A stretch of DNA of 64,000 bases, taken from an uncultured Candidatus Saccharibacteria bacterium (lineage in GTDB: Bacteria; Patescibacteriota; Minisyncoccia; Phycocordibacterales; UBA9973). The stretch lies in assembly GCA_964527235.1 (NCBI GenBank), contig CAZGNC010000002.1, positions 82,381 to 146,380 on the forward strand, given 5' to 3'. Under the pieces are notes generated by a model. The model worked only from the letters and a program-made list of their open reading frames with translations, did not search any database and was not told where the DNA came from. Position numbers and translations under genes: made by a program. Shown here in pieces: positions 10,978-60,832 of this stretch (the first letter of the stretch is position 1; each line of letters opens with the position of its first letter).

Positions 10978-13518
10978 ATGAAAAGAATACTAAAACACCT
11001 CAAACACGCCCGCAATAATAGGCATTTCTGGAAAAACATAGCCTTCCTGGCATTGGGCGGTTTTATTTTTTTAACCAGTCTGGGAATGCTATGGTTTTCT
11101 TCACTTAAAATTCCCGATTTCAGCTCTCTGGCTGACCGAAAGGTTATAAACTCTACAAAAATATACGATAGAACTGGAGAAATTTTACTTTTCGACATCC
11201 ACCAAGATGTCAAAAGGACAAACGTTGCATTCGAAGACATGGGAGCAAATATCAAGAATGCGACCGTGGCAATAGAAGATGCAGAATTCTACAACCATGG
11301 GGGTATAAAATTCAGCTCTATTATAAGAGCAATCATAGCGAACCTAACATCAACGTCTAGCACTCAGGGAGGATCCACCATAACCCAGCAGTTAGTAAAA
11401 AACACACTCCTAACTCAAAAAAGGACATACACTCGTAAAATAAAAGAATGGGTATTGGCCATAAAGGTTGACCGCTCTATGCCGAAAGATAAAATCTTAG
11501 AATACTATCTCAACGAAGCTCCTTATGGAGGTGCTATCTATGGCATAGAGGAAGCTTCTAAGAGTTATTTCAACAAGAAATCATACGACCTAACTCTAGC
11601 AGAAGCAGCTTACCTAGCTGCAGTACCTCAATCCCCTACCATGCTTTCTCCTTATGGTAAAAATGTCACCAAGCTTGAAGACAGAAAAAACTTAGTACTA
11701 TCTAGAATGAAACAACTCGGCTTCATAACCGAAGAAGAATACAAGTCCGCCAAAGCAGAGAAGGTAGAATTTGTTTCTCAACAAGTTGGTGGCATTAAGG
11801 CACCCCATTTTGTATTTTTCATAAGAGATTACTTAGAACAAAAATACGGAAGCGAGTTGGTTGAGAATGGGGGTCTTAAAGTTATAACTACTCTGGACTA
11901 CACACTTCAAGAAAAAGGTGAACAAATAACCAAAGACGGAGCCCTAAAAAACGAAAAGGACTGGAATGGAGAAAATGCGGGCTTGGTTGCGATAGACCCT
12001 AAAACTGGCCAGATATTAACAATGGTAGGGTCACGCGACTACTTTGATAAAGAAATAGACGGCAACTATAACATAGCTACAGCTACCCGTCAGCCTGGAT
12101 CTTCTTTTAAGCCTTTTATATACGCTACTGCGTTTAATAAAGGCTTTACTCCTGAGACAGTTCTGTTCGACCTACCAACAGAATTTTCAACAACCTGTGA
12201 TGTCTATGGTAAGGCTCTGCCGGGACGTAGTCAGAGTACTTGCTATAAGCCTGACAACTACGACAACATGAATCGTGGGCCTATGAGTCTTCGTAGTGCT
12301 CTCGCAGAATCTATAAACGTGCCTGCAGTTAAACTTTTCTATCTAGTCGGCTTAAGAGACGCTCTAAAAACAGCAGAGGAGATGGGTATTAGCACCCTAA
12401 CAGATATAGGTAGATATGGATTAACCCTAGTTATCGGAGGTGGAGAAGTATCTTTACTTGATATGACTTCAGCTTATGGAGTATTCGCAAACAGTGGCAT
12501 TCGAAACCCTTATACAGGAATTCTTAGAGTAGAAGACAAAAATGGAAACGTCTTAGAAGAATTCAAAGATAAATCTAGGGAAGTTCTTCCTAAGAATTCA
12601 GCATTAACTATTTCAGATATTCTCTCTGATAACGTAGCTAGAACACCAACATTCGGCGCTAACTCATTATTGAAAATTGGAAGCAATGACGTAGCAGTAA
12701 AAACCGGTACCACCAACAGCAATCGAGATGCTTGGACTGTAGGATACACTCCATCTGTAGTAGTAGGAGTATGGGCTGGAAATAACGACAACACCCCGAT
12801 GAGAAAGGGTGGTAGTGCGCTGGCTGGACCTATTTGGAATAAATTTATGGTTGAAGCCCTTAAAGTTATGCCAAATGAAAAATTTGAGAAACCAAATACC
12901 GAAACAGATCCAGAAAAATTAAAACCAGTACTACGAGGTTATTGGATGGGAAACGAAAGTTTCTTTATTGATAAAATATCAGGAAAACTAGCCAATGAAA
13001 GCACCCCAGATGAAACTAAACAAGAAAAAGTTATAACTAATGTTCACAGTATTCTTTATTGGGTTGATAGAAATGACATATTAGGAGCTCCACCTAAAGA
13101 CCCTGAGGACGACGCTCAGTTCAAACACTGGGAAGTTCCAATACAAAACTGGTGGGCGCAAAACAGTTCCAAGTATCCAAGAGTTACTTTGAGCGATAAA
13201 CCTAGCGAAGAAGACGATATACACAACAATGAGTCTTTCCAGCCAAAAGTTACTGTTCTTGAACCTAGTGAGGTTAAGAAATACAAAGAGAATCAACGCA
13301 TCTATCTCAAGATAGATAGTAAAAGCCACTTCCCTCTACAAAAAATGGATATATTTATAAATGACGCTTATATATCAACTTCCCAAGCACCATTTAATTT
13401 CTCATTTATCCCAGTGGATATTTCTGATATAAAAACAGAGAACGAGTTGAAAATAATATATTACGACACTGCTTACAATAAGGGTGAGGTTTCTTCTACA
13501 TTTAAGGTAGAAGAATAA
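10978..13518 (+). CDS. Class A penicillin-binding protein (transglycosylase plus transpeptidase, PBP1A-like) with a long C-terminal extension
   Basis: GT51 motifs EDAEFYNHGGI and TITQQLVKN; transpeptidase motifs SSFKPF (SxxK), SxN and KTGTT. N-terminal membrane anchor. Confidence 0.9.
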   Translation: MKRILKHLKHARNNRHFWKNIAFLALGGFIFLTSLGMLWFSSLKIPDFSSLADRKVINSTKIYDRTGEILLFDIHQDVKRTNVAFEDMGANIKNATVAIEDAEFYNHGGIKFSSIIRAIIANLTSTSSTQGGSTITQQLVKNTLLTQKRTYTRKIKEWVLAIKVDRSMPKDKILEYYLNEAPYGGAIYGIEEASKSYFNKKSYDLTLAEAAYLAAVPQSPTMLSPYGKNVTKLEDRKNLVLSRMKQLGFITEEEYKSAKAEKVEFVSQQVGGIKAPHFVFFIRDYLEQKYGSELVENGGLKVITTLDYTLQEKGEQITKDGALKNEKDWNGENAGLVAIDPKTGQILTMVGSRDYFDKEIDGNYNIATATRQPGSSFKPFIYATAFNKGFTPETVLFDLPTEFSTTCDVYGKALPGRSQSTCYKPDNYDNMNRGPMSLRSALAESINVPAVKLFYLVGLRDALKTAEEMGISTLTDIGRYGLTLVIGGGEVSLLDMTSAYGVFANSGIRNPYTGILRVEDKNGNVLEEFKDKSREVLPKNSALTISDILSDNVARTPTFGANSLLKIGSNDVAVKTGTTNSNRDAWTVGYTPSVVVGVWAGNNDNTPMRKGGSALAGPIWNKFMVEALKVMPNEKFEKPNTETDPEKLKPVLRGYWMGNESFFIDKISGKLANESTPDETKQEKVITNVHSILYWVDRNDILGAPPKDPEDDAQFKHWEVPIQNWWAQNSSKYPRVTLSDKPSEEDDIHNNESFQPKVTVLEPSEVKKYKENQRIYLKIDSKSHFPLQKMDIFINDAYISTSQAPFNFSFIPVDISDIKTENELKIIYYDTAYNKGEVSSTFKVEE

Positions 13519-18513: not shown

Positions 18514-19833
18514 CTACTTGAGCTTGAGCTCCCAGAGATGGGAGTCTTTTTTGTTTATAAAGAAAAGATAATTTTCATCCTGGTCTAGTGCGAGCTTGAT
18601 GTTGTCCATGTCTTCTATCCCCTTACCTGAGCTCATGTCGGAAATTATCGATCCTGTTTGCGTTGCAACGTCGATTTTCCAGATTTCATCTGAGAAAGAA
18701 ATTTTACCCATATACCATGCATCTGGGTAAGATGCACCCTCTATGTATTTAGGAACAGAGCAATATATATAGTCACTAGAATTACTCCAGACACATTTTT
18801 CTGGAAGAGTTTTTATTCCTAGAGTGCTTGAGGTTTTGGTATTAATATTAAAAATCTCAAGAGATAAGCTGCTGTCGGTCCAGAGGACTAATTTGCCTGA
18901 AGGGCTGGTTAACGTCGTAAGGCCGTTGATATCCCCTATAACTCTATTGAAGTCTTTTCTGGTGAGATTTATGGCATACATATATCCTAAGACAGACGAG
19001 GAGGGCTTGGTGGTAAGGGTGATGAGATCTTTGTTTGGCCATTGAGATAACCACTCAGTGAACGGGCTGTCGAACACCTGCACTTTTTTATCTCCTAGTA
19101 GCCCTGATGTTGAGCCTATCGCGTTCTCGCCCACGTTTAATAAGTAGAAAATTTGGGATTTATCGGGAGATATACTCATGTCTGTGATGTTGTCAGATAG
19201 AAATGTGCCAGTTACTTCTTTGTCCCCGGTTGTGGTGTCGTTTATAGTTTCTTTAGGTATGTTGCCAGAGAAAGAAAGAATCGTCACATCATCATATTTA
19301 GTAGATCGCATGACTACTGACTCAGTGTTTACCCCGAAGAAAGCTTCTTGCACCCTAGGTACAAGAGTTTTAGATAATTTCTGCTCTTCTATTTTGTCAG
19401 CAAAAGATTGGTATATGTTTCCGGTAGCTTTTTCAACATACCTTACTGCCAGAGCAAACTCCGTGGATATAGAGCCACTTGTTGGTGTAGTAGAGCCTGA
19501 GGTTGTTGTGTCAGTGCTCGGTGCAAAGACTACATCAGTGATTCTTTCTTTGGAAAAAAGTCCAAAACCAGCTACGGGCATGCTGGAGATCATTCTTAGA
19601 TTGGTCTCTGTGCCTGTGTACGTAGGTGTTTCTTCTTCACCTTCAGGGGTTGCCCCATTTCCGTTTGGAGTTGTGGTCGTTGGGTTTTTCTTGAATGGGT
19701 TAAATTTAACAAGGAAATTAGTAGGTGTCGTCGCCCCTCCAGTGTTATTGTCTTTACGGAAATAAATAAAAGCAAAAACTCCAGCGACTATGATTAATAT
19801 TATTATAAATAGTATTGTGTTTCTTTTTGACAT
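18514..19833 (-). CDS. Membrane-anchored Thr-rich extracytoplasmic protein, hypothetical (beta-rich or propeller-like)
   Basis: N-terminal TM (ILFIIILIIVAGVFAFIYF), a Thr/Gly-rich linker, then about 330 aa of beta-rich sequence. It is the last gene of the long minus-strand array. Confidence 0.6.
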   Translation of the reverse strand: MSKRNTILFIIILIIVAGVFAFIYFRKDNNTGGATTPTNFLVKFNPFKKNPTTTTPNGNGATPEGEEETPTYTGTETNLRMISSMPVAGFGLFSKERITDVVFAPSTDTTTSGSTTPTSGSISTEFALAVRYVEKATGNIYQSFADKIEEQKLSKTLVPRVQEAFFGVNTESVVMRSTKYDDVTILSFSGNIPKETINDTTTGDKEVTGTFLSDNITDMSISPDKSQIFYLLNVGENAIGSTSGLLGDKKVQVFDSPFTEWLSQWPNKDLITLTTKPSSSVLGYMYAINLTRKDFNRVIGDINGLTTLTSPSGKLVLWTDSSLSLEIFNINTKTSSTLGIKTLPEKCVWSNSSDYIYCSVPKYIEGASYPDAWYMGKISFSDEIWKIDVATQTGSIISDMSSGKGIEDMDNIKLALDQDENYLFFINKKDSHLWELKLK

Positions 19834-19840
19834 AAAATTA

Positions 19841-21211
19841 TTATTTTAAACCTGAGCATGTGCCACTTGTGTAGCCAGCTTCATTACTAGCTCTACTAAA
19901 ATGCATAGCGTCCTTCTTGGTTTTCCAATAACCACCCCAACCAAATCCTCTGCTTGTAAAAAGTTGCACAAATGCTAGCGGCATATCTGTTGTACATGGA
20001 GATGAAGAGTTTACATAAGGATTGGCGCTAGGGTTTATGTCTATAGCTAAGCCGAAAGCGTGGGCTGAAGGGGTTGTGCTTGTTCCTGTGGCACTTCTTG
20101 GATTAAAGCCACCCACTGAATTTATTCGATAATTTCTAATTGCAGGGTTTGTGCTGTTTTTCCATGCCGTATCTATTATTTGAAGATCCGCCACAATTGA
20201 TTTGTGAACAGTAACACCCTTCCCTAAAAAAACGATATTTACTAAGTTTGCGCTGTCACAAGATACAATTCCTTGTCTGTTTGTCTTTCCACAAATAACA
20301 CCCGGGTCTCCGTCTATTTCAGGGCCTTCGACAAACTGTATTGTTGTTGGATCTATGTCTAAAACAGTGTTAAGTATTTTGGGATTAATTGTATACAGAA
20401 TAATCCAAGCCCCCATTGCTATGAGAAGTCCAACGACCGCGTCTGTAATCCTTTTCTTTCCCTCTCCTTTCGCCCCAGGAAGTTCACTGGTAATGTATTC
20501 TAGGCCACCCATTATTATCATCAAAACTGCGAGCACTGCCGAAATGCCTATGACTAACTTTATTATTACATTTAGATAATTACCCAGTGCATTCGGTGAT
20601 GCTGTATCTATTGGTTCTGTTAGGTTTGGTAATGGTGCAAGAGGTTTGTAGATGGTGGTAGAAGTGGTGGTGTTTGTGGTTGTTGTGGGTGTACCTAATG
20701 GTGTTGTGTTGCCCAACCAGTTCCAATTATTGCCTAGCATATCGCAGGTACCTTCACAGTCATAACCTAGCTCATTCTTACCTTCAGAAGAGTAGTCTGC
20801 ACCGCCGTCACTAATGTTTGTTATACTGACATAGTATTCGCACTCAGGAAGCCTTCCTGAAATTCTGGTCTCACATTCTGATTCACCAGTTTTGTAATTT
20901 AATGAAAAGTTGTCGGAGGTTGTAGATATTTTCCTATTTTCTATTTCTGTCACATCATCATCTGGCCCCAAATAGTCTTTTTCTGTAATACTTATTTCTA
21001 AAGATTTTCCAATACAATTTTTTGTAGAAACGTCGATTCTTATTTGTGGAGGGTTGTTGCCCTTGTACCAAGAAGTTGCTTGGGTGCCAGAGGGGTTGAA
21101 TTTAGTTGATTGTATCGTGCATTTTTCAGCTGCCTGTGCCGAAAAGTTCAATCCAATTACAAAAACTATCACTGAAACAAATATTAGTATGTAGTTTGAA
21201 ATTTTACTCAT
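19841..21211 (-). CDS. Fusion protein: signal peptide, Cys-rich extracellular domain, TrbC/VirB2 pilin-like two-helix hydrophobic module, and a C-terminal M15 (LAS-family) zinc peptidase
   Basis: The pilin-like core ...KLVIGISAVLAVLMIIMGGLEYITS...AVVGLLIAMGAWIILY resembles the TrbC/VirB2 motif (AVLMIIWGGxxY). The C-terminus has SAHAFGLAIDIN and ...DAMHF, matching the Zn-ligand pattern of VanY/L-Ala-D-Glu peptidases. Confidence 0.6.
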   Translation of the reverse strand: MSKISNYILIFVSVIVFVIGLNFSAQAAEKCTIQSTKFNPSGTQATSWYKGNNPPQIRIDVSTKNCIGKSLEISITEKDYLGPDDDVTEIENRKISTTSDNFSLNYKTGESECETRISGRLPECEYYVSITNISDGGADYSSEGKNELGYDCEGTCDMLGNNWNWLGNTTPLGTPTTTTNTTTSTTIYKPLAPLPNLTEPIDTASPNALGNYLNVIIKLVIGISAVLAVLMIIMGGLEYITSELPGAKGEGKKRITDAVVGLLIAMGAWIILYTINPKILNTVLDIDPTTIQFVEGPEIDGDPGVICGKTNRQGIVSCDSANLVNIVFLGKGVTVHKSIVADLQIIDTAWKNSTNPAIRNYRINSVGGFNPRSATGTSTTPSAHAFGLAIDINPSANPYVNSSSPCTTDMPLAFVQLFTSRGFGWGGYWKTKKDAMHFSRASNEAGYTSGTCSGLK

Positions 21212-22194
21212 TAAAATTGTATGCTTATTTCTTTCTTTGCAGTCTGGAATATTTTGTAACTGTTCTCAATTTCAAGTTTTAAGGTTGATATTCCAGAAGA
21301 GTCGCCTGCAACCTGAAGAGGGATCATGTTGCTTTTTGAGTTTTTATTTTCAACTAAAATTCCATTTATGTACCAATTCCAAATTAATTCAGGTCTACCT
21401 ATTTCTTTTGGTGAAATAAAATACGGGATAGCAGCTAGTGTCTCCTCACCCTGTATTTGATATTGATTAGACAGTGCTTGGTCTAATAACACTCCCATAG
21501 ATGTATCATTTTTATAAAACACAATTTCCGGGTTTGTGGGGGTTATGTTTATTTGGCCTTCTGCTTGGCTTTTCTGGTCCCCTGTTGTCGCGATTGCTGA
21601 TATGCTATTAGAACTATCAAGAAAGCTTCCTGAATATATGAAGAAGTTTTTTCCATAACCAGATTCATTGGGTTGATTGTTTAGGTCTTTCTTCCAGACA
21701 TAGTTCATGTTTTTAGGGTTTACAGAAGTATTCGCTGAGGTCTTTATTTCAGGCATGGCTACTACTTTTATTTTACTATCTGATACAGGTAAAGCTTTCC
21801 CTTTATAAAAAGGAGGAACATATGAATCACTAGCTTGCCAAAGCAGGATCATGGACGAGGGTTTCAACACAACCGTTTTCTCTATTTGGCCATCAGGGAG
21901 AAGAATTCTCGCTCGGACGGTGGTCGTCGTTCCCGAGTCGCCGATAGTTAAAGATAGAGATTTTTTGCCCACACCCGATAGTGCGCTTTTATCATTTATA
22001 AACCAATTGATTTGTACGCTATCTAGGTTGGCAGCATAGCTTCGAAGAGAAATATTTACGTTGGAGTTTGGGCTAGGGTTTTGTGGTGAAACATCAACCA
22101 GGATGCTGCTTGGAGATACGGCTAGGACTGGGTCGGCAAAGCCTACACCCAGTACTAGTACTAAACATACCAATAAATATTTTAAACCCATCAT
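21211..22194 (-). CDS. Secreted hypothetical protein (signal peptide, beta-rich or Ig-like)
   Basis: N-terminal MMGLKYLLVCLVLVLGVGFADPVLA signal peptide; 327 aa. Confidence 0.6.
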   Translation of the reverse strand: MMGLKYLLVCLVLVLGVGFADPVLAVSPSSILVDVSPQNPSPNSNVNISLRSYAANLDSVQINWFINDKSALSGVGKKSLSLTIGDSGTTTTVRARILLPDGQIEKTVVLKPSSMILLWQASDSYVPPFYKGKALPVSDSKIKVVAMPEIKTSANTSVNPKNMNYVWKKDLNNQPNESGYGKNFFIYSGSFLDSSNSISAIATTGDQKSQAEGQINITPTNPEIVFYKNDTSMGVLLDQALSNQYQIQGEETLAAIPYFISPKEIGRPELIWNWYINGILVENKNSKSNMIPLQVAGDSSGISTLKLEIENSYKIFQTAKKEISIQF

Positions 22195-22212
22195 AATAAT
22201 AAAATTATTATA

Positions 22213-24054
22213 TCATTTATAAGGATTTCCCGCTGTCTCTAATTCCATTTTTGCCTTTTTTATTGAAAGGATCTGTGATGGGTCAGATGTGATTATCTGG
22301 TCTTCGGTGTAAGAAGCCACTATTTTTATAGCTACGTGTTTTAGTCCAGCAAAGAATATACCCTCTCCTACTCCTGATTCAAGCAATAAGTACTTTTCCT
22401 CGTCCGTTAGGCTAAATGTCTTTTGAAGTACGTCTATTGTAGTTGGTGACTGCTTTAGTAGTATTTGGATAGAAGAGTTGGTTATTATCGGTATTCCATA
22501 AGGAGAATTCATAAAGTCGCCTGCGTCCTGGGTTATGGTTGCAAGGCCTAGATAATACTTTCTTCCACGTTTAGCAATAGAGTATAGGAAAGAAGCAGTG
22601 TCTTCAGATTTCATCATCCACCAAGCTTCGTCGACTACTAACAATCGCTTTTTAAGGTTTTTTCGGACAGCGTTCCATATGTAGTGCATAACGATATACA
22701 TAGCTACTGGCTTCAGGTCGTCTTCCATGTCGCGCACAGAGAACACCACAAATTTCTTGTTGATATCTACGTTCGAAGGACGGTTTATGAAAGTAGCCCA
22801 AGTTCCCTTGGTGTACTTGGTTAGTCTTTGCATTAAGCTTTCACTTCCCTGCATGCCACCGAGCACCATCTCGAAATCAGACAATAGTGGTGGCTCGATA
22901 TTTGAGAAGTCAGACTGTGTAGTGATATCTTTCAATGCGTAGGTCTCTGATATGGCGCGATCTATTAATGAATCTTCTTCTGGGGTAAGTCCTCCTAGCA
23001 TTAAGCGAAACAAACCAACCAAGTTAATTATGTTTGACCTCAATACGTCTTCTGCGGTTTCGTCTTCTCTGGGAACTGGTAGATCGAAAGGATTAATATG
23101 GTGATCAGAAGATAAAGAGATATTGAAATATCTACCACCAACTGCTTCAGCTAGATATTCATATTCTCTTTCTGGATCGATGACTATAACATCAATGTCG
23201 AACATTAAGGATCTTAGAATTTCGAGTTTAGTAGCATAGGATTTTCCAGAGCCAGCCTTAGCAAATGTAACAGAGTTATAGTTCTCAAGAGAAAATCTAT
23301 CGAAGATAACGAGGCTAGAGTTGTGGCGGTTTATGCCATATAGTATTCCCTTGTCTGAAGTAAGGTCGAAGGAAATGAATGGGAAAATACTAGAAAGTGG
23401 GTCAGAGTTTAGCTTCTGGTGTACTTCTAGTAGGTCTGTGCCTAGTGGGATAACGCTCTTGAAGCCCTCTTCTTGTTGGAATAATGCAGGTTTTATATAG
23501 ATCAATTTGGATTCAAGCATTGATTTGACCTCATTTTCAACCCTAAACAGATCAGCTTCGTTGTCACCATAGATGGTTATGTAAACTCCAACATCAAACA
23601 TCTTTTCTTGTGCTTGGATTAAGTTGTCACGAAGTTCTTCGAGGTCTTGGTGAGCAGTGTCGAGCATTGGGTCACGCACCATTCCCTTTGCTTCTCGTAT
23701 TCCTATCTGGCTTTGCACCTCGGCAACTTTTTTCTGGAATTGTCTTAATACTACAGAAGTATCAATCGGGTGAACGAAAATAGAAACATCAAAAATTTTA
23801 TCCAAGTTTATTATTGGCGAGAACCAATTATCAGATAAATATCTAGGATAAGAAATTATAAAGAAAGTGCGAGCTATTTTATCACCCAAGTTTAGGCCCT
23901 TAGATTCTACTTTGAGTGCTGAAGGGGCGATAACGTCAGCAAGTTCTAGCGTCGCTGACTTGTAAATTTCTTCTGGTAGGACAGACAAAACAGAGCTTTT
24001 CATTTGCCCTACTTCGTCACTTTTTCTTCCCAATAATTTATCAAAAATTCCCAT
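22213..24054 (-). CDS. VirB4/TrbE/CagE-family type IV secretion ATPase, C-terminal ATPase part
   Basis: Walker A FAKAGSGKSYATK and Walker B LLVVDEAWWMM. The most likely start is MGIFDKLL at 24054; the longer ORF extends to 24144, overlapping the upstream gene. Confidence 0.85.
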   Translation of the reverse strand: MGIFDKLLGRKSDEVGQMKSSVLSVLPEEIYKSATLELADVIAPSALKVESKGLNLGDKIARTFFIISYPRYLSDNWFSPIINLDKIFDVSIFVHPIDTSVVLRQFQKKVAEVQSQIGIREAKGMVRDPMLDTAHQDLEELRDNLIQAQEKMFDVGVYITIYGDNEADLFRVENEVKSMLESKLIYIKPALFQQEEGFKSVIPLGTDLLEVHQKLNSDPLSSIFPFISFDLTSDKGILYGINRHNSSLVIFDRFSLENYNSVTFAKAGSGKSYATKLEILRSLMFDIDVIVIDPEREYEYLAEAVGGRYFNISLSSDHHINPFDLPVPREDETAEDVLRSNIINLVGLFRLMLGGLTPEEDSLIDRAISETYALKDITTQSDFSNIEPPLLSDFEMVLGGMQGSESLMQRLTKYTKGTWATFINRPSNVDINKKFVVFSVRDMEDDLKPVAMYIVMHYIWNAVRKNLKKRLLVVDEAWWMMKSEDTASFLYSIAKRGRKYYLGLATITQDAGDFMNSPYGIPIITNSSIQILLKQSPTTIDVLQKTFSLTDEEKYLLLESGVGEGIFFAGLKHVAIKIVASYTEDQIITSDPSQILSIKKAKMELETAGNPYK

Positions 24055-24061
24055 ATATTTA

Positions 24062-24709
24062 TTATAGTTGTGTGCCAACTTGAATCTTACCTTCTTGCTC
24101 TCCGGGATTGAAAACTTTATAAAAAATTTCAACGACTTCTTCACTACCTAGCTGGATTGATTTAATGCCACAGCGAGCAAGCCCTTGCTGAACTACGTTC
24201 ACTCTTTGTTCAAGCTGGGAGCGTTGTTCTTCGAAATCCATCTGACGGCTAGCATTTATCTCAGACTCTTCCCTCTTTTTAAATATTCCCATCAATGCAT
24301 TTGATTCTGATTTTAGACTCACACGAGAATAAGGCACTACCACGAAGAAAGTTTTAGTCATTATGCTTACAGAATCTGTGAATTTCCTTATAAATTCTAT
24401 GTATTCCTTGGTTTGAAGTTTAAGTAGCGGTTCGTTGAGCACTTTCATTCTGTCTTCTAGAGTTAGAAGATAAGGTCGAATATCTAGTCTTCTAGACTGA
24501 ATTGAAATTTGAGCAGAGAAATCCAGGGTGTTTAGAAAGCTTTGGAACTGTAGAATTATGGCTTTCTGCTCGTCGTTGGATTTGAGCGATAAGTTGGTAG
24601 AGTTGGCTAGCACAACAGCACGAAGACCTCCGTCTTTTAGGATTATGATTCCATCACGGACTTCTTGTATTGGTACGAAATCTTGGGCTGCTTTTGCCTT
24701 TATTGCCAT
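24062..24709 (-). CDS. VirB4 N-terminal domain encoded as a separate 215-aa ORF
   Basis: ...QDFVPIQEVRDGIIILKDGGLRAVVLANSTNLSLKSNDEQKAIILQFQSFLNTL...SIQSRRLDIRPYL matches the conserved N-terminal region of VirB4/TraC/TrsE proteins. Its TAA stop is 7 nt upstream of the ATPase ORF start, in a different frame. Confidence 0.6.
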   Translation of the reverse strand: MAIKAKAAQDFVPIQEVRDGIIILKDGGLRAVVLANSTNLSLKSNDEQKAIILQFQSFLNTLDFSAQISIQSRRLDIRPYLLTLEDRMKVLNEPLLKLQTKEYIEFIRKFTDSVSIMTKTFFVVVPYSRVSLKSESNALMGIFKKREESEINASRQMDFEEQRSQLEQRVNVVQQGLARCGIKSIQLGSEEVVEIFYKVFNPGEQEGKIQVGTQL

Positions 24710-24737
24710 TGAAATTTTATTTTTACAAACCTAATAA

Positions 24738-25157
24738 CTAATTTCTTTCTTTGTTTAAATCCAAAACGTCTAAACTCCAAGCCAAATCACGCAACTTCCC
24801 ACTACTCATTTTGATTTCGGGTGCGGTAGTTGGTTTTTGGTTGGCGAATGCTTGTGCTCTTTGCTGATCATATGTTTTCGGCTCCTTCTTCCATATATAC
24901 AGTTTACTCTGCATGAAGTATTTTATACTAGCTTCTAGCATGTCTACGAATGGTTTATTGTTGGGCCTGTAGAAAGTTAGCGCCACAGTAAGTGCTATGA
25001 GGATAACCAACGGAATAAATCCCCAGAAAAGACCCAGCAGTCGATACACAACAAAACACATCCCTCCCCCTCCTGCCAGGTATATGAACTGTCTGAAAGT
25101 GAAAGGGCCAAAAATTTTATCTTCTATTTCTAAAAATTGTGGTACTTTAAACTGCAT
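24738..25157 (-). CDS. VirB3/PrgI-like small two-TM T4SS protein
   Basis: 139 aa. FLEIEDKIFGPFTFRQFIYLAGGG followed by two TM helices, the PrgI/VirB3-type pattern that normally precedes VirB4. Confidence 0.5.
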   Translation of the reverse strand: MQFKVPQFLEIEDKIFGPFTFRQFIYLAGGGGMCFVVYRLLGLFWGFIPLVILIALTVALTFYRPNNKPFVDMLEASIKYFMQSKLYIWKKEPKTYDQQRAQAFANQKPTTAPEIKMSSGKLRDLAWSLDVLDLNKERN

Positions 25158-25160
25158 ATC

Positions 25161-26309
25161 TTATTCTATCACTTCTCGGTACGGATCGGTACCAGACTTA
25201 GGGTCTTTATTTAGAGCTGGTGCCGGAGTTGCAACTTTTGAAATGTTTTTCATCGCATAGTCAGTTTGAGTTTTAGGGATTTGGAAAGTTCCGGCGAATT
25301 TTTGCGCTTCGATAGACTTAGGAGGAGTTGGCCCACCAGAAGCAAGATGCCATTCTTGTTTGAGCATCTCTTCTCTGTCTATGTTGTTGGCTGGGTTTGG
25401 AGCAGCAGGCTGCTGTGCGACTCTAGGAGGAGGTGTTGGGATTGGAGCATTAGGCATAATAGGAGATGGTCTTGGGATTGGGACCACGTTATGGGCATTT
25501 GGGGCATTCTTTACATCAGGCATAAGCTCTATGCCTGCCTTTTTCAACGTTTGCATGTCGTCTTTTAGGGTGTGCACAGTTGAGGCAGGGTCTGGGATAA
25601 CTGTTTTGGCTGGTGCTGCTGTCGGTGCTGATGCTGGGGTTTTGTTTTCACTACTTGCGTTCATCATGTTTTCTCTGATTTTCTTTATTATCTTTTCATT
25701 TACATCAGTTACTAACTTTGGAATTAGTTCAGTTGGGATTTTAAGCTTGTCTTTTAGCGCTTGTTCGAATTGAGTAGGTTGAATTACTCCAGTTATAACA
25801 TCAACAGTTACTACTTCTAGAATGCCTGTCTGCTCTACGTTTAGCTTGTTGTCTTTAGATATAGTGTAAATTATGTTTTGGTAATCTAGCTTGGAGATAG
25901 CATCTTGGACATTTTTTGCCAAGTTAGCAAAGCGTTCATCTAGTCCTTGTGTTTCGAGTTCTGGTTCTGGATTCTGAGAGTTTGCCTTAAATGTATTATT
26001 TAGCTCTGTTTTTATTGGGTTTATTACTAGGCTATTTATCTCTTCAAGCATGTTGCCGAATGCGTCTTTCGCCAATAGAGATATTTCTTTTTTAAGATTT
26101 GACTCGAATTCTTCTGTGGAAATTATGCCCAGTAATACTAAAGTGGCCTCAGTCCCAAGAGTTTGTATTTGAGCCTCAGTTAGGTTGTATTTAATACTTA
26201 TCCTCTTCAATGTTTCTAACCAGCTCATGCTTGCAAACATTGATTGAACTGTTGGTGGCAACTTTGCGTAAAAAATAGCTATATTTTGTTTTAATTCTTC
26301 AGGATTCAT
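25161..26309 (-). CDS. Hypothetical protein with Pro/Ala-rich C-terminal half
   Basis: 382 aa, no TM, proline-rich low-complexity tail. Co-oriented with the T4SS genes. Confidence 0.55.
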   Translation of the reverse strand: MNPEELKQNIAIFYAKLPPTVQSMFASMSWLETLKRISIKYNLTEAQIQTLGTEATLVLLGIISTEEFESNLKKEISLLAKDAFGNMLEEINSLVINPIKTELNNTFKANSQNPEPELETQGLDERFANLAKNVQDAISKLDYQNIIYTISKDNKLNVEQTGILEVVTVDVITGVIQPTQFEQALKDKLKIPTELIPKLVTDVNEKIIKKIRENMMNASSENKTPASAPTAAPAKTVIPDPASTVHTLKDDMQTLKKAGIELMPDVKNAPNAHNVVPIPRPSPIMPNAPIPTPPPRVAQQPAAPNPANNIDREEMLKQEWHLASGGPTPPKSIEAQKFAGTFQIPKTQTDYAMKNISKVATPAPALNKDPKSGTDPYREVIE

Positions 26310-26325
26310 TGTTTTAAATTATTTT

Positions 26326-28575
26326 TTAATGATGTCCTCCCCCACCTCCGTGTGATTCTTTCTTCTCATCTCCTACGTGAGATAGGTCAACGTTTATTTT
26401 TACATTTTTGAGTGCATCAGATATTGTGGTGCCCAAGTCTTTAAAGAATGCCCCCTGTCCCTTACCATAATCTACCCCCATTTGCTTGAATCCTCCACGC
26501 ATACTCAAACCAATAGCCCCAACTATCCCTGCAGTTAGTTTAGAAAACATTGTTCCTTGCTCCTTGGCTACAACTTCAGCTACGTTGCGTAAATCATATG
26601 TCCCTGTTACACCTGATTGCACGACACTACTTATAATTCCTTGCTTAGGCCGAGCCTCAACAATTGTATGTAAGTCGTCCCATGTTTGTTGTGTAGCAAG
26701 AAGTCCTCCAGCAACGGGACCATGGGCGCCTGACCCTATTGCATTATTGATGATATCTCTTTCTTGTTGTGTTAATGAATCCCATTTCCTCCCTTGTAGT
26801 GCTATGCCGAGTGGGTTAGCAGCAGCATTGTTGCCTGAGTTTTCTCGTACAGCTCTGTCCCTAGCCATTTTTTCTCTAGCTTCATATCTTTCTTGTCCAT
26901 TTAGTTCATCCCATTTTTTCTTTGAACCATGCGTAATAGTATTCGCAATTGAATCTAGTTCATGTCGGGCATGGGCTGCGTGCCGTACTCCTACTTGGTC
27001 AGTATTAAGTAGATTACCAAGCGTTCTTTGTGCCCCAGCAATTCCCGTGCCTTGTTGCATTAGTCCTACTAACTGATCTTTTCTTGAGCTAAATATCTCT
27101 GATCTTGCCTTAAATCTCTCAACTATATTGGAATTTGGGTTATTCAATATTGCTCTATTGGCCACTATCCTGTTTGTGTTTTGCTGAATTCTATTAGCTG
27201 CAGTATCCCCCGTAGAAGCTCCTTTCATAAAGGCTCCTACTGTATTTCTTCCCACAAATGCTGTGCCTAGTGCTGCGCCTCCTATGCCCACAACTCCTGC
27301 AGTCTTAAGCCCACTCATCACTATGTCGGTAAACTGTCCTGAAGCTGATTTAGCATATTTAACGCCCTTAAGAAGTAGTATGACAATCAACACCGCAGGC
27401 ATGAAGAGTATTATTAGCTGGGCTATTGCGCCTTTATTGTTGCTGTCAGCGACAGAGGCAAATATTTTCGCATTAAGTATTTCTGATATGACGTACAGGA
27501 TGAACATGAATATTGCCGCCATGAAAGAAGTCTGGAAGAGTTGCCCTATCCAGCTATCGAAGCCTATAGTGTCCTTCCCCCTTAGGCTAGGTACTGCCCT
27601 TGTTACAAAGGCCACTGGCGATACGATCATTAGCATCATCAAGGTTAACATTCTCCCAAGCATACTTATACCAGCCATTAAAAATGCATAAGACAAAGCA
27701 AAAGCAATAATTCCGTATATTACCATCAGAGATATTTTAAAGGTTGTACTTAGCTGAGGTGTTCGCGGATCTTGTTTTAAATTTTCGAAGAATGTCCCAC
27801 TAAAAAATGCATTGACATCAAAGCCAGAAATAAGAGCAGCGCCGAGCTCCTTTTCTCCCTGGTTTGCACTTATTGCATTCTGTACTGGGCGAGAGGTGTT
27901 TATTTTATTGTAGAAGACTAAAGCCGTTATGTTCGATGCATCTATGACTACCTTAGTGAAGAAAAGGCTAAAGTTCACAAGAAGAGCTACCATGATAACT
28001 GTAGCAACTATTTTGTTTGCTTCCCCGTGGCCTAGGTCTAGGATTTTTTGTATTGCAGCGTAAAGCAATATAAGGATAAAGAAAATATTGGCTAGGTCGC
28101 GAACAACTGTCCAGATGCTGGCAACAAAGTCAGCTTTATACATATTACTACTTAGCGTCAGTGCGGCCGTGAAGTCGAACATTTTCGCAAAGACAGCCAT
28201 CAACATCGACGGCAGAGTAACAAAGAAGACGTAAGTTACTTTCTGGATACATCCTTCTAGGCTAAAGTCTAACAAGTTCTCACAGTCATCTAGGTTTTTT
28301 TCAAGTTCTGATTCTTGTTTTGGTGCTGGATTGCTTGAAGAGTATGGAGTCCAGATTGCATTATTTCCATCAGATCCCATTTTGGATTCACAGGCTACCT
28401 TATTCATTTTGTGTACAGTTTGTTTTACATGGCGATTCCCTTGAGCTGTCGTGTATTCACAGGTTCCTAGTAATTCATCTGCTACAGCTTGAGTTGAAGC
28501 CATGGAAAAACCTGCTACCAAGATAGACAGTGCGAATATAAATGGGATTAATTTTTTAATTATTTTCGCTAACAT
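26326..28575 (-). CDS. VirB6-like polytopic membrane protein with hydrophilic C-terminal tail
   Basis: Signal/TM at the N-terminus, about 6-8 TM helices in the middle, and a tail with three degenerate WDxL repeats (KKWDEL, RKWDSL, QTWDDL). The call rests on position in the cluster and topology, not a motif. Confidence 0.45.
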   Translation of the reverse strand: MLAKIIKKLIPFIFALSILVAGFSMASTQAVADELLGTCEYTTAQGNRHVKQTVHKMNKVACESKMGSDGNNAIWTPYSSSNPAPKQESELEKNLDDCENLLDFSLEGCIQKVTYVFFVTLPSMLMAVFAKMFDFTAALTLSSNMYKADFVASIWTVVRDLANIFFILILLYAAIQKILDLGHGEANKIVATVIMVALLVNFSLFFTKVVIDASNITALVFYNKINTSRPVQNAISANQGEKELGAALISGFDVNAFFSGTFFENLKQDPRTPQLSTTFKISLMVIYGIIAFALSYAFLMAGISMLGRMLTLMMLMIVSPVAFVTRAVPSLRGKDTIGFDSWIGQLFQTSFMAAIFMFILYVISEILNAKIFASVADSNNKGAIAQLIILFMPAVLIVILLLKGVKYAKSASGQFTDIVMSGLKTAGVVGIGGAALGTAFVGRNTVGAFMKGASTGDTAANRIQQNTNRIVANRAILNNPNSNIVERFKARSEIFSSRKDQLVGLMQQGTGIAGAQRTLGNLLNTDQVGVRHAAHARHELDSIANTITHGSKKKWDELNGQERYEAREKMARDRAVRENSGNNAAANPLGIALQGRKWDSLTQQERDIINNAIGSGAHGPVAGGLLATQQTWDDLHTIVEARPKQGIISSVVQSGVTGTYDLRNVAEVVAKEQGTMFSKLTAGIVGAIGLSMRGGFKQMGVDYGKGQGAFFKDLGTTISDALKNVKINVDLSHVGDEKKESHGGGGGHH

Positions 28576-28589
28576 TTTTAATAACTTTT

Positions 28590-31025
28590 TTAAAACTGTG
28601 TGTCCCCTGCGTGTTTGTAATCATTGTCATTTACTTTAAACAGAAGACCACAATCTATATCTACGCTTACAGGGAATCCGTTTGCAATATCTCCATAATA
28701 CCAATGAGCATTAACCATAGGCAGGTCAGTGAACCCCGGAGTGCCTAAAGTGTTGCCAAAACCATTTCTGAATGTGAATAGAGATTTTCCTTTATTGTTT
28801 GAGAACTCAGGTCTTATTATGTCGCCATGGCTAAATCCATTTACTATTGGTACATCACAGAAAACTTCTCTTTCAGTTCCAGATGAAGTCATGATTGGTC
28901 CTGGAATTAAGTTCGGTTCTCCCCCGAGATCGCGAGGAATCAAGAAGTAATAGCTCTGTCCTTTCAATGAAGAAATATTTGTTGTGCTTTTAGCTCCACC
29001 TGGTGCAGACCACCCAGCAATGGTTCGCTCTTGTGCGCACTGGTTCTCTAGTAGAAGCAGATTCTGCTTTCTCTCTTTCATTAAATCAAGCTGGCTCCTA
29101 AGGTCTTCGATTCCTGCTGAGTTTGCCACAGAAGCAGCAATAGCATCGTATTGTTTTCTTATATTGATTAGATTCTTTTCTTGAGGTGAGCCAACTGCTG
29201 GCTGGGTGGTTATGGGAGCAAGCATGGCTTCTATAGAATTCAACCTTGTTAACACGGTCATCTTCTCTCGCTTTTTGTCAGTTATTTGCTTGTATTGTTG
29301 GTCGTTAGTGTCTAATTCTTTTATAGCATCTATGTACAATATACTGTTAGGCAACCCAAATCCTCCTTTCTGTGTAGGGGTTATCATCTTTAGATTTATC
29401 CAATCTTTTAGTGCACTTACTGCATATCGTATCTCGCGAATTCCATCTTTAGATGCTCTAACCTTAAGAGGACTGTCATTGGTTGTTTCTGTCATAATTT
29501 TCCCATTTATGACTCTATCTTTTTCTTCATCAAGTCTGGTCTCCCATCCTTTTTCTGGTCCTGGTATGCACATATCTAGTCTCTTAGCTACTGGCCAGAT
29601 TCCATCTAGAACTTCTATTAACCCAGGATTTTGGTTGTTGCTGGTGTTGTTAGATATAAGTTGTAGCTCGAGTGCTGTGTTTGCTATAGCTCCTGGTATG
29701 TAGGTTGCAACTCCCGGAGTCGCACAGTAGCTAGGAGGTGTTGCGTTTGCACAAGTGTTCCCAACATCTTCTTGGGTGACTACCCCTGTTGCTGGGTCTG
29801 TTACTATGGTTTTACCACTGACTTCTTTCTTGAAATCATCAAGTACAATTTCTTGGTCTGGCATTCCGCTCCATGGTGTGTCGCTGTCTGAGCCACCTAG
29901 TGTTTCTCCATAGTAATTAAAGCTGTCATCTGCTGGTGGGTTTACGTGGTTGGATAGTGCTGTCAAACCATCACCTATAAACTTATTTAAAAGAGCATCG
30001 AATATGGTAGCTAGGCTGTTGCCCAGAGCTGCATTTAGAGATGCTTGTTCCTCGGGCTTATTCATTGCTCCTATTATTTTAGAAGCTACGACTGATCCTG
30101 GAGTGGTAGTAGCAAGTCCTTCAGGGCAGGCATATTGCATGTCGAAGTTAGCTCTTGCAGCGTCTACTGCAGATTTGTATAAGGATCTGTATGTTGGGTC
30201 ACTTGCTGCACGTGCCTCATCATAAGGTACTGTGGACGGGTCGAAGCTTGGTTTATTGAAAGGGTTAAGTTGACTTTTGGATGGGTCAGATTTGCAGACT
30301 TGAGGCGACAAGAATCCCTGCCCTTGTTGCAGAGCATCATTTACTTTTTGGGTAGCTGTTCTTGTAGTGCCGTCTAAATTTATCGCTAGTTCTTTCGTCA
30401 CTAACATATCGAATCCGATAGCATTGTTTTGTGGGTATTGGGTGTTCACCAAGAAAGTGTCCCATCCTCCATAGTTGAAGTCTACTCGATATCGCTGTAG
30501 TTCATAGGGGTCATTTGTAATTCTACTCATAGAGTACTCCAGGTTGTCTGAAAGCTGTCTCTTGTAGCTTCCTATGACTCCTAGAAGATAATTTTTACCG
30601 AATGGAAATCGTATAGAGTCATAACCTATGATACTAACTAGGTCTTTTATTTCTGATTTAGCTACATCCTGAAAGAAAGATCCTGGATTTTCTAAGAAAA
30701 GAGGTGCTCCGTGAAAGCCTGTATTTATCCAGTTTACGGTACTCTTGGTCATTTCAGCCAAGGCTTTCCTAGCAACAGCTTTTAATGTTTCTCTCACGAT
30801 AGCTTTAGCTATTTCTTTTAGCTGGGCTGCTGTGCCGGTAACATTCGCTGTTGCGCTTAGTGCGCTTGAAATATTCCCTACTACTCTTTGAATTGCCGCT
30901 ACTGGGTCTACCCATTGTGCTTCAGCCTTTTTGGGAACTGTTAGGAAAATAAAAGACGGTGCAAGAATAAGAACAACAAGTATTGATGAAATGAGTTTTT
31001 GAATTTTTTCTTTTTTAAAAGTCAT
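28590..31025 (-). CDS. Large (811 aa) membrane-anchored secreted protein, hypothetical (surface or adhesin-like)
   Basis: N-terminal TM/signal (ILVVLILAPSFIFLTVPKKAEA), then a long extracytoplasmic domain without recognisable motifs. Confidence 0.6.
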   Translation of the reverse strand: MTFKKEKIQKLISSILVVLILAPSFIFLTVPKKAEAQWVDPVAAIQRVVGNISSALSATANVTGTAAQLKEIAKAIVRETLKAVARKALAEMTKSTVNWINTGFHGAPLFLENPGSFFQDVAKSEIKDLVSIIGYDSIRFPFGKNYLLGVIGSYKRQLSDNLEYSMSRITNDPYELQRYRVDFNYGGWDTFLVNTQYPQNNAIGFDMLVTKELAINLDGTTRTATQKVNDALQQGQGFLSPQVCKSDPSKSQLNPFNKPSFDPSTVPYDEARAASDPTYRSLYKSAVDAARANFDMQYACPEGLATTTPGSVVASKIIGAMNKPEEQASLNAALGNSLATIFDALLNKFIGDGLTALSNHVNPPADDSFNYYGETLGGSDSDTPWSGMPDQEIVLDDFKKEVSGKTIVTDPATGVVTQEDVGNTCANATPPSYCATPGVATYIPGAIANTALELQLISNNTSNNQNPGLIEVLDGIWPVAKRLDMCIPGPEKGWETRLDEEKDRVINGKIMTETTNDSPLKVRASKDGIREIRYAVSALKDWINLKMITPTQKGGFGLPNSILYIDAIKELDTNDQQYKQITDKKREKMTVLTRLNSIEAMLAPITTQPAVGSPQEKNLINIRKQYDAIAASVANSAGIEDLRSQLDLMKERKQNLLLLENQCAQERTIAGWSAPGGAKSTTNISSLKGQSYYFLIPRDLGGEPNLIPGPIMTSSGTEREVFCDVPIVNGFSHGDIIRPEFSNNKGKSLFTFRNGFGNTLGTPGFTDLPMVNAHWYYGDIANGFPVSVDIDCGLLFKVNDNDYKHAGDTQF

Positions 31026-31055
31026 TATCTTGTTCTTTATTATATAATTTACTTT

Positions 31056-31928
31056 CTAGTTATTCAATTTTTTTACCAAGAAATCAGCTAATTTATCCAA
31101 TGCAGATTGTAATAAGTCGCTATTTTCTTCGTATTTACTGATTGCCCCCATTGCAACTATGGGGTCTACCTCAAAAAGTTGTATGTCAGATATATTTTCT
31201 ACTACTCTTTGTAAGGCATTTATCATGTCTAGATGTAGCTGAGCTAAATCCTTCGGGACCGTCATGTTCTTGAAGTCATTTATTGATGAGGACTTCTGTT
31301 TTATTATCGGGTCTAATTTTATGAGGGCCTCGGCGTTTACATTTTCACCGTCATTTACGAATTCTTTTAATATATCAAGTACATTTACTGAAACAGGGTA
31401 CTTTTTGTTGATATTATCTATGGCTGTGACATATGTTTGGATGGCTGTAGGGCTGTTGTCTAGGCTAGTTTTGATATCAGATGCCAAGAAAACCTTTCTT
31501 TGCACCGAGTTTTTTATTTGGCTTGCTAGTGATTCTGTTAGTTTATCGGCACTAGCATCATCTACTTCCCCGGCTTGGTTTAGGGCTACTATAGTAGAAA
31601 ATAGCTCTCTAGAGAATTTATCAGTTTCAGTTAGAACCTCTTCTCCTGTAACAGTGTCTTTGGTGTCGGTGGTGCCTTCTTTTTCTAATTTTAGCTTAGC
31701 TATTTCTGCTCCGTCTTCTTCGCCGTCACCATCAGTGTCTTTCATTGTTGGGCTGGTGCCCCATAGTCCCTCTTCCCAATTCATTACTCCATCTAAGTCC
31801 GTATCTGTGCTTACTAGGTCAGATAGTTTCATGTCTCCTGAATATATTCCCGCACTTTCTCCAGAATTATTGTTGAATATTGTTTTACTTTTTATCAAAA
31901 AAAGCACAAGCAAAACAACTACCGTCAA
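31056..31928 (-). CDS. Membrane-anchored secreted protein with Asp-rich Ca-binding-like repeats
   Basis: N-terminal TM; DTDLDGVMNWEE...DTDGDGEEDGAE resembles thrombospondin-type-3 or dockerin-like Ca-binding loops. Confidence 0.55.
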   Translation of the reverse strand: MTVVVLLVLFLIKSKTIFNNNSGESAGIYSGDMKLSDLVSTDTDLDGVMNWEEGLWGTSPTMKDTDGDGEEDGAEIAKLKLEKEGTTDTKDTVTGEEVLTETDKFSRELFSTIVALNQAGEVDDASADKLTESLASQIKNSVQRKVFLASDIKTSLDNSPTAIQTYVTAIDNINKKYPVSVNVLDILKEFVNDGENVNAEALIKLDPIIKQKSSSINDFKNMTVPKDLAQLHLDMINALQRVVENISDIQLFEVDPIVAMGAISKYEENSDLLQSALDKLADFLVKKLNN

Positions 31929-58937: not shown

Positions 58938-59065
58938 CCCAATATTCTAGCATTTTATTGTCTGGGACATTGTGCGACATGGGTTGACTTTTGGGTGTTT
59001 TTATGTTTAATATATAGTAGGTTTGTAGTTCGTCTCAGGTTCACCCTTTAGAAGGAAAAGGTCCC

Positions 59066-59398: not shown

Positions 59399-59416
59399 TT
59401 TCGTCCCCAGTGTTAC

Positions 59417-59450
59417 CGGCCCCGCCCACAAGCGGGGCCGTATCTATTTC
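59417..59450 (+). terminator. Rho-independent terminator (CGGCCCCGC ccacaa GCGGGGCCG followed by a T-rich run)
   Basis: Perfect 9-bp GC stem followed by TATCTATTTCC. Confidence 0.6.
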
Positions 59451-59496
59451 CATAGACCCCCTTGCTTTTTTATAGGTTTTATGCTAGGATATACGT

Positions 59497-59760: not shown

Positions 59761-59786
59761 TATCTCCTCGGTGCTATAATTAAAAT

Positions 59787-60302: not shown

Positions 60303-60391
60303 GGCTTGACCTAACATAAGTTCGGGTGTAGTTTGAGCTTAGAGTTCTTACTCGTTTGTTACTGTGTTATTCCTCAACAGGAGTGTGTGCC

Positions 60392-60808: not shown

Positions 60809-60832
60809 CCTGTTCCGACATCGTTCTGGATG

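Follow-up and report, generated by a model that had tools for sequence, protein, structure and literature searches.

The type IV secretion systems (T4SS) of Patescibacteria include VirB2-like pilins of the profile family PF18895, which consist of a signal peptide and a hairpin, are described as small stand-alone subunits that often occur in arrays, and are encoded beside virB4 in a chromosomal system near dnaA, with no relaxase or coupling protein nearby (Wang 2023, PMC10633639; Quinonero-Coronel 2025, PMC12102498). The gene analyzed here lies at 19841-21211 on the minus strand of a 64,000-nucleotide stretch (the window) of contig CAZGNC010000002.1 from an uncultured Candidatus Saccharibacteria bacterium. 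It shares the profile family, the signal peptide, the hairpin and the genomic setting of these pilins, but it is a single gene in which the pilin is joined to an N-terminal domain of ~130 aa and a C-terminal enzyme of ~155 aa, whereas a canonical VirB2/TrbC subunit is small when mature (about 70-130 aa) and has no extra globular domains.

The enzyme invites comparison with a second group of T4SS components, the dedicated hydrolases VirB1 (Agrobacterium), PrgK (pCF10), TraG (pIP501), TcpG and CD419. Like the fusion, these are encoded in T4SS operons, are extracytoplasmic and are predicted to open the wall locally, and the Gram-positive ones are likewise tethered to the membrane. The differences are that VirB1/PrgK/TraG-type enzymes are lytic transglycosylases or CHAP proteins, whereas the fusion carries an M15C-type metallopeptidase and has no SLT (GH23) match that would relate it to VirB1; that their anchor is a single N-terminal transmembrane (TM) helix rather than a pilin hairpin; and that in the fusion family the enzymatic domains are exchanged between close relatives. 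Among Candidate Phyla Radiation (CPR) genomes, most of those with VirB2-like pilins lack VirB1, so that pilus biogenesis was concluded to need none, and VirB1-type matches cluster with virB4 only in Paceibacteria (PMC12102498).

The original prediction for this DNA described a single open reading frame (ORF) fusing a Cys-rich ectodomain, a TrbC/VirB2-like pilin hairpin and an M15 cell-wall peptidase. The ORF was borne out, with 456 aa and an ATG start, and its parts are as follows:

19841..21211 (-): whole fusion gene, 456 aa, ATG start, stop codon at 19841-19843 (ORF listing and identical protein on independent contigs)
21131..21211 (-): signal peptide, residues 1-27, ending between AQA and AE (hydropathy peak at residues 7-25; cleavage site placed by the AxA rule)
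20732..21130 (-): N-terminal extracytoplasmic Cys-rich domain, residues 28-160 (six Cys and a predicted beta-sandwich, from the translation and the structural model)
20651..20731 (-): Thr-rich linker, predicted disordered, residues 161-187 (model confidence below 50 over 137-184; composition)
20627..20650 (-): Y-x-x-L-A-P-L-P motif, residues 188-195 (conservation in 120 homologues)
20342..20626 (-): VirB2-like pilin hairpin, residues 196-290 (two TM helices, a K/R-containing loop and a T-I-N-P motif at the end)
20312..20341 (-): short acidic linker, predicted disordered, residues 291-300 (model confidence below 50 over 287-297)
19844..20311 (-): C-terminal M15C-type zinc peptidase domain, residues 301-456 (Peptidase_M15_4 match, invariant ligands)

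One operon slot with exchangeable heads

To describe the slot that this gene occupies, we compared the contigs of seven homologues, this window included. The operon order is the same in all seven loci: a VirB6-like gene, PrgI, a TraC-like gene, VirB4, a gene for a protein of ~327 aa, the pilin-hairpin gene, a gene for a 439-aa protein, and then jag/yidC and onward to dnaA. What differs is the domain that follows the hairpin, which we call the head:

This window and P0010: M15_4
P0016: VanY
P0029 and P0065: YkuD
P0039: NlpC/P60
P0098: SLT

The genomes compared are relatives at the genus or family level, with identities of 82-92% for DnaA, 73-85% for DnaN and 65-79% for PBP1, and VirB4 is 74-94% identical across the comparison loci. 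Pairwise similarity between the fusion proteins spans the N-domain and the hairpin (42-55% identity in the hairpin) and stops at about residues 293-319. When the heads alone were compared with hhalign, no relationship was detected between head types, except for the zinc motif common to M15_4 and VanY (E=7e-5). On these sequence comparisons, the differences between heads are non-homologous replacements, and the 456-aa protein is built as a modular T4SS pilin whose cell-wall enzyme head can be swapped.

The flanking genes do not change with the head. The 327-aa partner is orthologous in all six comparison loci (35-65% identity) and the 439-aa partner in five (35-64% identity), in each case regardless of the head; the contig of the sixth locus, L007, stops before the latter gene. 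The start of the fusion gene abuts the upstream gene in L003 and L008, and in the window the two overlap by 1 nt, the upstream stop and the fusion start forming TAATG, as read directly at the junction. We also considered a toxin-immunity effector of the T6SS Tae/Tge or Xanthomonas X-Tfe type; this is not supported, because both neighbours are the same orthologs under all heads.

In two species the same slot holds a headless pilin, of 161 aa (L064:5878-6363) or 183 aa (L049:4798-5349), and in both the motif YxxLAPLPG stands directly after the signal peptide. These headless variants point to the hairpin as the conserved core and to the enzyme as an accessory. The recognisable heads, surveyed in 178 proteins, are all peptidoglycan-active (M15_4, VanY, YkuD, NlpC/P60, SLT, SLT_2, SLT_3, Amidase_5 and a weak CHAP), and same-slot relatives carry SLT, CHAP and NlpC/P60, the domains used by T4SS-dedicated hydrolases. 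The N-terminal modules vary too, comprising one to four copies of the Cys-rich domain, Big_1 or Filamin. At one locus a pilin-CHAP gene (L034:5932-6885, a weak match) adjoins a pilin-SLT gene (L034:6900-7931); the Gram-positive VirB1 analogues TraG and PrgK hold SLT and CHAP as a pair (PMC12102498), and in L034 that pair is split over two pilins.

The possibility that the fusion is an assembly or frameshift artefact joining two genes was rejected, since the identical 456-aa protein occurs on three contigs, at least two of them from different sequencing runs, and dozens of orthologous fusions exist. The identical protein is present in both NCBI and Logan sources (the longest NCBI contig measures 216,689 bp), and orthologs at 40-60% identity retain the layout. 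All 120 homologues collected by a word-indexed search have a signal peptide, a variable N-terminal region, the hairpin and a C-terminal extension, in that order. An exhaustive HMMER scan of 1.84 billion cluster representatives (50%-identity clusters) gave 17,387 matches at E<=1e-3, of which 4,023 reached E<=1e-10 and 142 reached E<=1e-30. In the top 150 representatives the pilin is combined with M15 in 79, so that at least 79 distinct clusters carry this pair, and 17 of these 79 have the full layout of N-domain, pilin and M15; another 51 of the 150 carry one to four Cys-rich N-domains, the pilin and a different head.

The same fusion is thus found across CPR relatives, as the original prediction had asked to be checked. 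Relatives in a species-representative scan come from metagenome-assembled genomes labelled Nomurabacteria, Wolfebacteria, Kaiserbacteria, Paceibacterota, Minisyncoccia and Saccharibacteria, and the non-CPR matches in that scan concern the M15 domain only. Among 58 pilin ORFs of GTDB representatives, about 54 continue into a C-terminal extension, which measures 80-310 aa overall and 140-290 aa in most cases, and several loci hold two or three tandem pilin-head genes, in some arrays with different heads. A pilin with a C-terminal enzyme head is therefore the rule within Paceibacteria-type CPR bacteria, so that the fusion, which had been predicted to be unusual, is so relative to classical T4SSs and not within these lineages.

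Four further loci from these scans deserve mention. In L040:5206-6378 and L079:5314-6402, both from CPR bacteria, the same M15 subfamily sits on a single N-terminal TM helix with a long linker. An apparent fusion outside the CPR (L089, 'Prevotellaceae') was a false positive, the protein being a membrane pyrophosphatase. On a 2.9-kb contig binned as Aenigmatarchaeota (DPANN), an ORF cut by the contig end (L025:2-625) encodes the M15 subfamily at 43% identity, which could reflect mis-binning or transfer between ultrasmall symbionts.

The pilin hairpin and the enzyme heads

We next consider how firmly the two modules can be assigned. Residues 211-274 match T4SS_pilin PF18895 with E=1.8e-8 and 34.8 bits, above the Pfam cut-off of 26.6, while TrbC/VirB2 PF04956 reaches 18.3 bits on the hairpin and stays below its cut-off of 27.9; the predicted TrbC/VirB2-like hairpin thus holds through PF18895 and falls short by PF04956. 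The same division runs through the family, with PF18895 matched by 112 of the 120 homologues and TrbC/VirB2 reached at E<1e-3 by 15. The hairpin also gives a sub-threshold NCBIfam match to the Mbov_0395 pilin-like family of a Mycoplasma integrative and conjugative element (ICE). A hairpin-only profile found no significant match in the PDB (VirB2 8exh at E=9.1), and the fold matches of the hairpin protein are non-specific. Within the 64-kb window the fusion ORF is the sole match to the family pilin profile, so that no small stand-alone pilin was found there, and the gene map revealed no small two-helix ORF in the operon.

The hairpin is the densest invariant block of the whole protein among 25 orthologs. 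Y212, G222, A228, I232, G236, Y239, E243, K248, G261, L262, A265, L272, I275, N276 and P277 are invariant in that alignment, and the predicted MIIMGGxxY motif is real, its G235, G236 and Y239 being at least 90% conserved in the 120 homologues. The most conserved element outside the helices is the Y-x-x-L-A-P-L-P motif, in which L191 is invariant and conservation reaches at least 90% at Y188, A192, P193, L194 and P195 across the 120 homologues; it may mark the mature N-terminus, a subunit contact or a processing site. With this motif included, the pilin module extends over about residues 188-290 and the peptidase over about 300-445; the original prediction had the same two modules in the same order, at 230-320 and 330-456.

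PF18895 membership, the recurring sub-threshold TrbC similarity, the compatible topology and fold, and the fixed place in a T4SS operon together support the pilin assignment. By these criteria the protein classifies as a member of the CPR T4SS_pilin family; a role as a pilus subunit is not claimed. One could argue instead that the hairpin is a mere two-helix anchor for an ordinary housekeeping wall peptidase that lies near the T4SS by chance. The weak link to canonical VirB2/TrbC and the non-specific fold matches would fit such an anchor, and PF18895 is itself a predicted pilin family, not an experimentally shown one. We nevertheless consider this account highly improbable: the hairpin is the best conserved part of the protein, with about 20 invariant or near-invariant positions that include E243 and K248 in the loop, which exceeds what a passive anchor needs; its place between VirB4 and the partner genes is kept in seven of seven genomes, with TAATG coupling in the window; headless versions are retained in the slot; and the family members that do reach TrbC/VirB2 at E<1e-3 speak for a true relationship.

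An AlphaFold2 model computed from the 25 orthologs (mean predicted local distance difference test score, pLDDT, 70.6) agrees with the hydropathy profile in showing the predicted two helices; the profile peaks at residues 7-25, in the signal peptide, and at 215-244 and 255-280. The hydrophobic helices extend over about 213-236 and 253-275 by sequence and over 208-241 and 245-275 in the model (pLDDT 78-87). Residues ~30-135 form a beta-sandwich (pLDDT 55-85), residues ~300-445 an alpha/beta domain (pLDDT ~90), and the Thr-rich linker at 137-184 and the acidic linker at 287-297 are modelled as disordered (pLDDT <50). The loop between the helices, SELPGAKGEGKKRITD, contains four K/R and is flanked by acidic stretches on both sides, which by the positive-inside rule would place the loop in the cytoplasm and both globular domains outside the membrane. 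We infer that the Cys-rich domain and the peptidase are extracytoplasmic, in a topology like that of VirB2-type pilins.

The Cys-rich ectodomain was also borne out, with six Cys at residues 31-156 behind the signal peptide and a predicted beta-sandwich fold; four more Cys lie in the C-terminal domain. The N-domain has no Pfam match, and Foldseek returned only weak Ig-like matches. It is a mobile module, present in one to four copies on other pilin fusions, among them P0016 with its VanY head, P0029 with its YkuD head, P0027 and P0032.

The disordered linkers on both sides of the hairpin (residues 137-184 and 287-297) raise the question of whether the fusion is a precursor, cut in the linker that follows the hairpin and possibly ahead of YxxLAPLP as well, to release a small pilin and a free secreted peptidase, so that the fusion would serve only to co-export the two at a fixed stoichiometry. 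The position of YxxLAPLPG right after the signal peptide in the headless pilins, where a mature N-terminus would be, fits this proposal, and there is precedent in the maturation of RP4 TrbC and Ti VirB2 at both ends and in the cleavage of VirB1 into VirB1*. Yet the 291-300 linker shows no evident cleavage motif that the orthologs conserve, no TraF-type or signal-peptidase-type gene is recognisable in the operon, and the occurrence of the M15 subfamily on a plain TM anchor in L040 and L079 suggests that tethering is the selected state. We therefore regard processing into two products as improbable.

In the head, residues 376-439 match Peptidase_M15_4 PF13539 with E=2.8e-18 and 66.7 bits against a Pfam cut-off of 25, and the motifs S382-A-H384-A-F-G-L-A-I-D391 and D434-A-M-H437 are present, with their codons verified. 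The predicted zinc ligands H384 (20060-20062), D391 (20039-20041) and H437 (19901-19903) are invariant in the 25 orthologs, and D434 (19910-19912), which is probably catalytic, shows at least 90% conservation among them. C318 is invariant and C406 and C452 co-occur in the same orthologs; the conserved Cys fit an extracytoplasmic location and disulfides. Compared with solved structures, the head family profile aligns best with Ply500 (2vo9, E=1e-9), followed by LysB4 (6akv, 8e-6) and 8q2g (1.3e-3), so that its nearest solved sequence relatives are phage endolysin L-alanyl-D-glutamate endopeptidases, and its motifs align with those of Ply500. The prediction of a VanY-type or L-Ala-D-Glu M15 peptidase thus holds for M15, and between its two options the evidence favours the phage L-Ala-D-Glu endopeptidases (M15C): by sequence the head is M15C-like rather than VanY-like, and the L-Ala-D-Glu bond of peptidoglycan stem peptides is its most likely target. 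The head and the phage enzymes (Ply500, LysB4, 8q2g) have the zinc and catalytic motifs SxHxxGxAxD and DxxH in common. In phages, however, the M15C domain is part of a soluble lysin, joined to a cell-wall-binding domain, whereas the head hangs on a membrane or pilin hairpin and has extra conserved Cys and an additional N-terminal subdomain of ~75 aa.

Clustering of 172 C-terminal extensions shows how this head ranks among the others:

M15_4: 46 members
Family A, no known function: 36 members
SLT_3-like: 19 members
VanY: 13 members
NlpC/P60: 11 members
YkuD: 10 members
SLT_2: 4 members
Small clusters and singletons: 33 members

Family A (P0033 and 35 relatives, for example L033:5848-6912 and L036:2151-3068) has no Pfam or PDB sequence match. 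C239, C242, H255, H261, D269 and H304 are invariant in it, W305 and H306 are near-invariant, and C213 and C221 are conserved. This Cys/His/Asp pattern resembles LAS-type zinc sites, and family A may perhaps be an undescribed zinc peptidase family. Its head is modelled by AlphaFold2 with pLDDT >90; Foldseek found nothing significant for the model (the top match is the Indian hedgehog N-domain, E=0.45), and hhalign comparison with the M15 and VanY heads was non-significant.

The surrounding T4SS operon

The fusion gene belongs to a co-directional operon at 18514-31928 (-), in the order 290-aa, 811-aa, 749-aa VirB6-like, 382-aa, PrgI, 215-aa TraC-like, VirB4, 327-aa, fusion and 439-aa. The operon adjoins jag, yidC, yidD, rnpA, dnaA and dnaN, and a T4SS near dnaA is the arrangement published for Paceibacteria (PMC12102498). 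The main neighbours are:

18514..19833 (-): 439-aa downstream partner of no known family, comprising an N-terminal TM helix, a Thr-rich stretch and a beta-rich domain
21211..22194 (-): 327-aa upstream partner, secreted and beta-rich, no known family, translationally coupled to the fusion
22213..24054 (-): VirB4-like ATPase, 613 aa, CD1110 family (NCBIfam NF045971, 364 bits against a cut-off of 325)
24062..24709 (-): TraC-like/TrsD-like protein, 215 aa (PF26593 TraC-like), equal to the N-terminal part of long VirB4s
24738..25157 (-): PrgI (VirB3-like) membrane protein, 139 aa (Pfam PrgI, 44.4 bits)
26326..28575 (-): polytopic membrane protein, 749 aa, probable VirB6 analogue (hydrophobic segments, conserved position)

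The 749-aa protein also gives weak matches to the ICE transmembrane proteins MMCAP2_0566 and Mbov_0396. VirB4 is split into separate genes for the 215-aa TraC/TrsD-like protein and the 613-aa ATPase, and this split is kept in all seven loci. A frameshift in VirB4, which an 83-nt overlap of the 215-aa ORF with a 643-aa ORF might suggest, was rejected: the pair is conserved, and the overlap arises from an upstream GTG.

Several other features of the window were recorded. Within the operon, the 811-aa ORF at 28590-31025 (-) has a signal peptide, no Pfam match and a 36%-identical ortholog in L005; outside it, the ORFs at 34724-37975 (-) (1083 aa) and 40955-43078 (-) (707 aa) also have no Pfam match. 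A secreted LysM+Peptidase_M23 protein is encoded near the operon at 39111-40184 (+), and a class A penicillin-binding protein with transglycosylase and transpeptidase domains at 10978-13518 (+); together they indicate that the organism makes and remodels its own peptidoglycan. The GC content rises to 0.45-0.46 at 58000-62000, against about 0.39 elsewhere; this region has no Rfam match and contains short odd ORFs at 59066-59760.

Proposed wall remodelling at the secretion machine

We propose, with a probability of roughly 60%, that the hairpin docks the enzyme-headed pilin into the T4SS and that the head remodels peptidoglycan where the machine or its pilus crosses the wall. The Sec signal peptide would export the N-terminal Cys-rich beta-sandwich, the two-helix hairpin would insert with its K/R-containing loop in the cytoplasm, and a linker of about 10-25 residues would hold the M15C zinc peptidase outside the membrane. 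Docked through its hairpin, the protein would be a membrane-embedded subunit beside VirB6, VirB3 and VirB4; alternatively, the docked hairpin might be extracted, and stacking would then build a short pilus or conduit. The head would then open the wall exactly at the passage of the machine or pilus, the job that the separate VirB1, PrgK, TcpG and TraG do elsewhere. Both the docking or polymerisation of the hairpin and the identity of the wall that is cut, own or host, are points that we infer.

Four observations weigh against this proposal. Roughly one third of the heads, if not more, fall into families without a recognisable function. YkuD is an L,D-transpeptidase and VanY a carboxypeptidase, neither of them a simple wall opener, so that plain wall opening would not be the whole story. 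Whole-protein fold searches gave Ig-like and helical matches, and M15 structures were not among the matches listed. Finally, the turnover of heads among close relatives has no obvious reason if the enzyme does housekeeping work on the wall of its own cell.

This last point leads to an alternative in which the wall under attack is that of the host bacterium. Hairpins polymerised alone, or with pilins encoded elsewhere, would display the adhesin-like N-domain and the peptidase on the surface of a pilus that digests the host wall and aids penetration or the acquisition of nutrients or DNA, and the swapping of heads and N-domains would track host wall chemistry. The non-homologous replacement of heads in genomes whose VirB4 and DnaA remain 74-94% and 82-92% identical, the parallel variation of the N-terminal modules (Cys-rich domain in one to four copies, Big_1, Filamin) and the tandem arrays with different heads are all consistent with this alternative; a tethered enzyme, moreover, needs no type-specific immunity gene, and epibiotic growth depends on the CPR T4SS in the one species tested, in a role that is unexplained. 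The geometry of known filaments is also favourable. Solved structures of conjugative pili have the two pilin termini on the outside and the loop along the lumen, and the F pilus displays short peptides that are fused to the C-terminus of its pilin. Flagellinolysin, which makes enzymatically active flagella, sets a precedent for an enzyme on every filament subunit, and the modular type IV pilins PilB and PilC of Streptococcus sanguinis follow the same design principle of a globular module grafted on a filament subunit. Type IV pili and flagella, though, are filament systems unrelated to the VirB2 type; to our knowledge such a modular design has not been described for VirB2-type T4SS pilins, and polymerisation of the fusion is hypothetical.

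Other evidence makes a host-directed pilus unlikely, although we take it seriously. No pilus has been seen in CPR T4SSs, and globular domains of ~150 aa at both ends of the subunit would be expected to crowd a VirB2-type helical lattice; the linker from hairpin to head is short (about 10-25 residues), and the operon offers no second small pilin to dilute the decorated subunit. The neighbouring extracellular proteins have also diverged (35-65% identity), so that fast change may simply reflect surface exposure, and since nearly all peptidoglycan contains the L-Ala-D-Glu bond, an M15C head does not discriminate the host wall from the cell's own. The most far-reaching form of the idea, in which Paceibacteria-type CPR bacteria build a VirB2-type filament or conduit whose every subunit carries an exchangeable enzyme and an adhesin-like domain, bores through the host wall and adapts to hosts by head swaps, we hold more tentatively still. 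Such a structure, if real, would be the first conjugative-type pilus to bear an enzyme, and the essential, unexplained CPR T4SS would gain a concrete function.

The components of the fusion (CPR VirB2-like pilins, M15C peptidases and T4SS-associated hydrolases) are already known; the fusion and the swapping of its heads are new as far as we found. Databases hold hundreds of these proteins under the names 'M15 family metallopeptidase', 'VirB2 component (pilin)' and 'NlpC family hydrolase', and the literature searched, mostly outside subscription journals, contains no description of a pilin-enzyme fusion or of head swapping. The survey of CPR T4SSs treats VirB1 and VirB2 separately, and two of its supplementary files do not contain these enzyme names (PMC12102498). 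The fusion is likewise not mentioned in the study of Ca. Southlakia epibionticum, the one species tested for T4SS-dependent epibiotic growth, in which a pilin array is essential (Wang 2023, PMC10633639), in a FEMS 2025 review, which ascribes to the CPR T4SS only a 'potential to elaborate conjugative pili', or in a PNAS 2024 perspective, which calls the role of the Patescibacteria T4SS 'completely unknown'.

A hydrolase head carried on the pilin would explain both the scarcity of VirB1 in genomes with VirB2 and the clustering of VirB1-type matches with virB4 in Paceibacteria only. Our results suggest that the pilin itself incorporates the hydrolase in those Paceibacteria-type lineages that were sampled, a reading of VirB1 scarcity other than the survey's, and that the T4SS machine carries its own wall-remodelling tool. 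The unannotated head domains, including the 36-member family with zinc-peptidase-like motifs, may be new cell-wall enzymes, and if the subunits polymerise, they would form a new class of enzyme-displaying filament. A wall-active enzyme of predictable activity, together with natural variants that are headless or differently headed, offers a handle on the function of the CPR T4SS.

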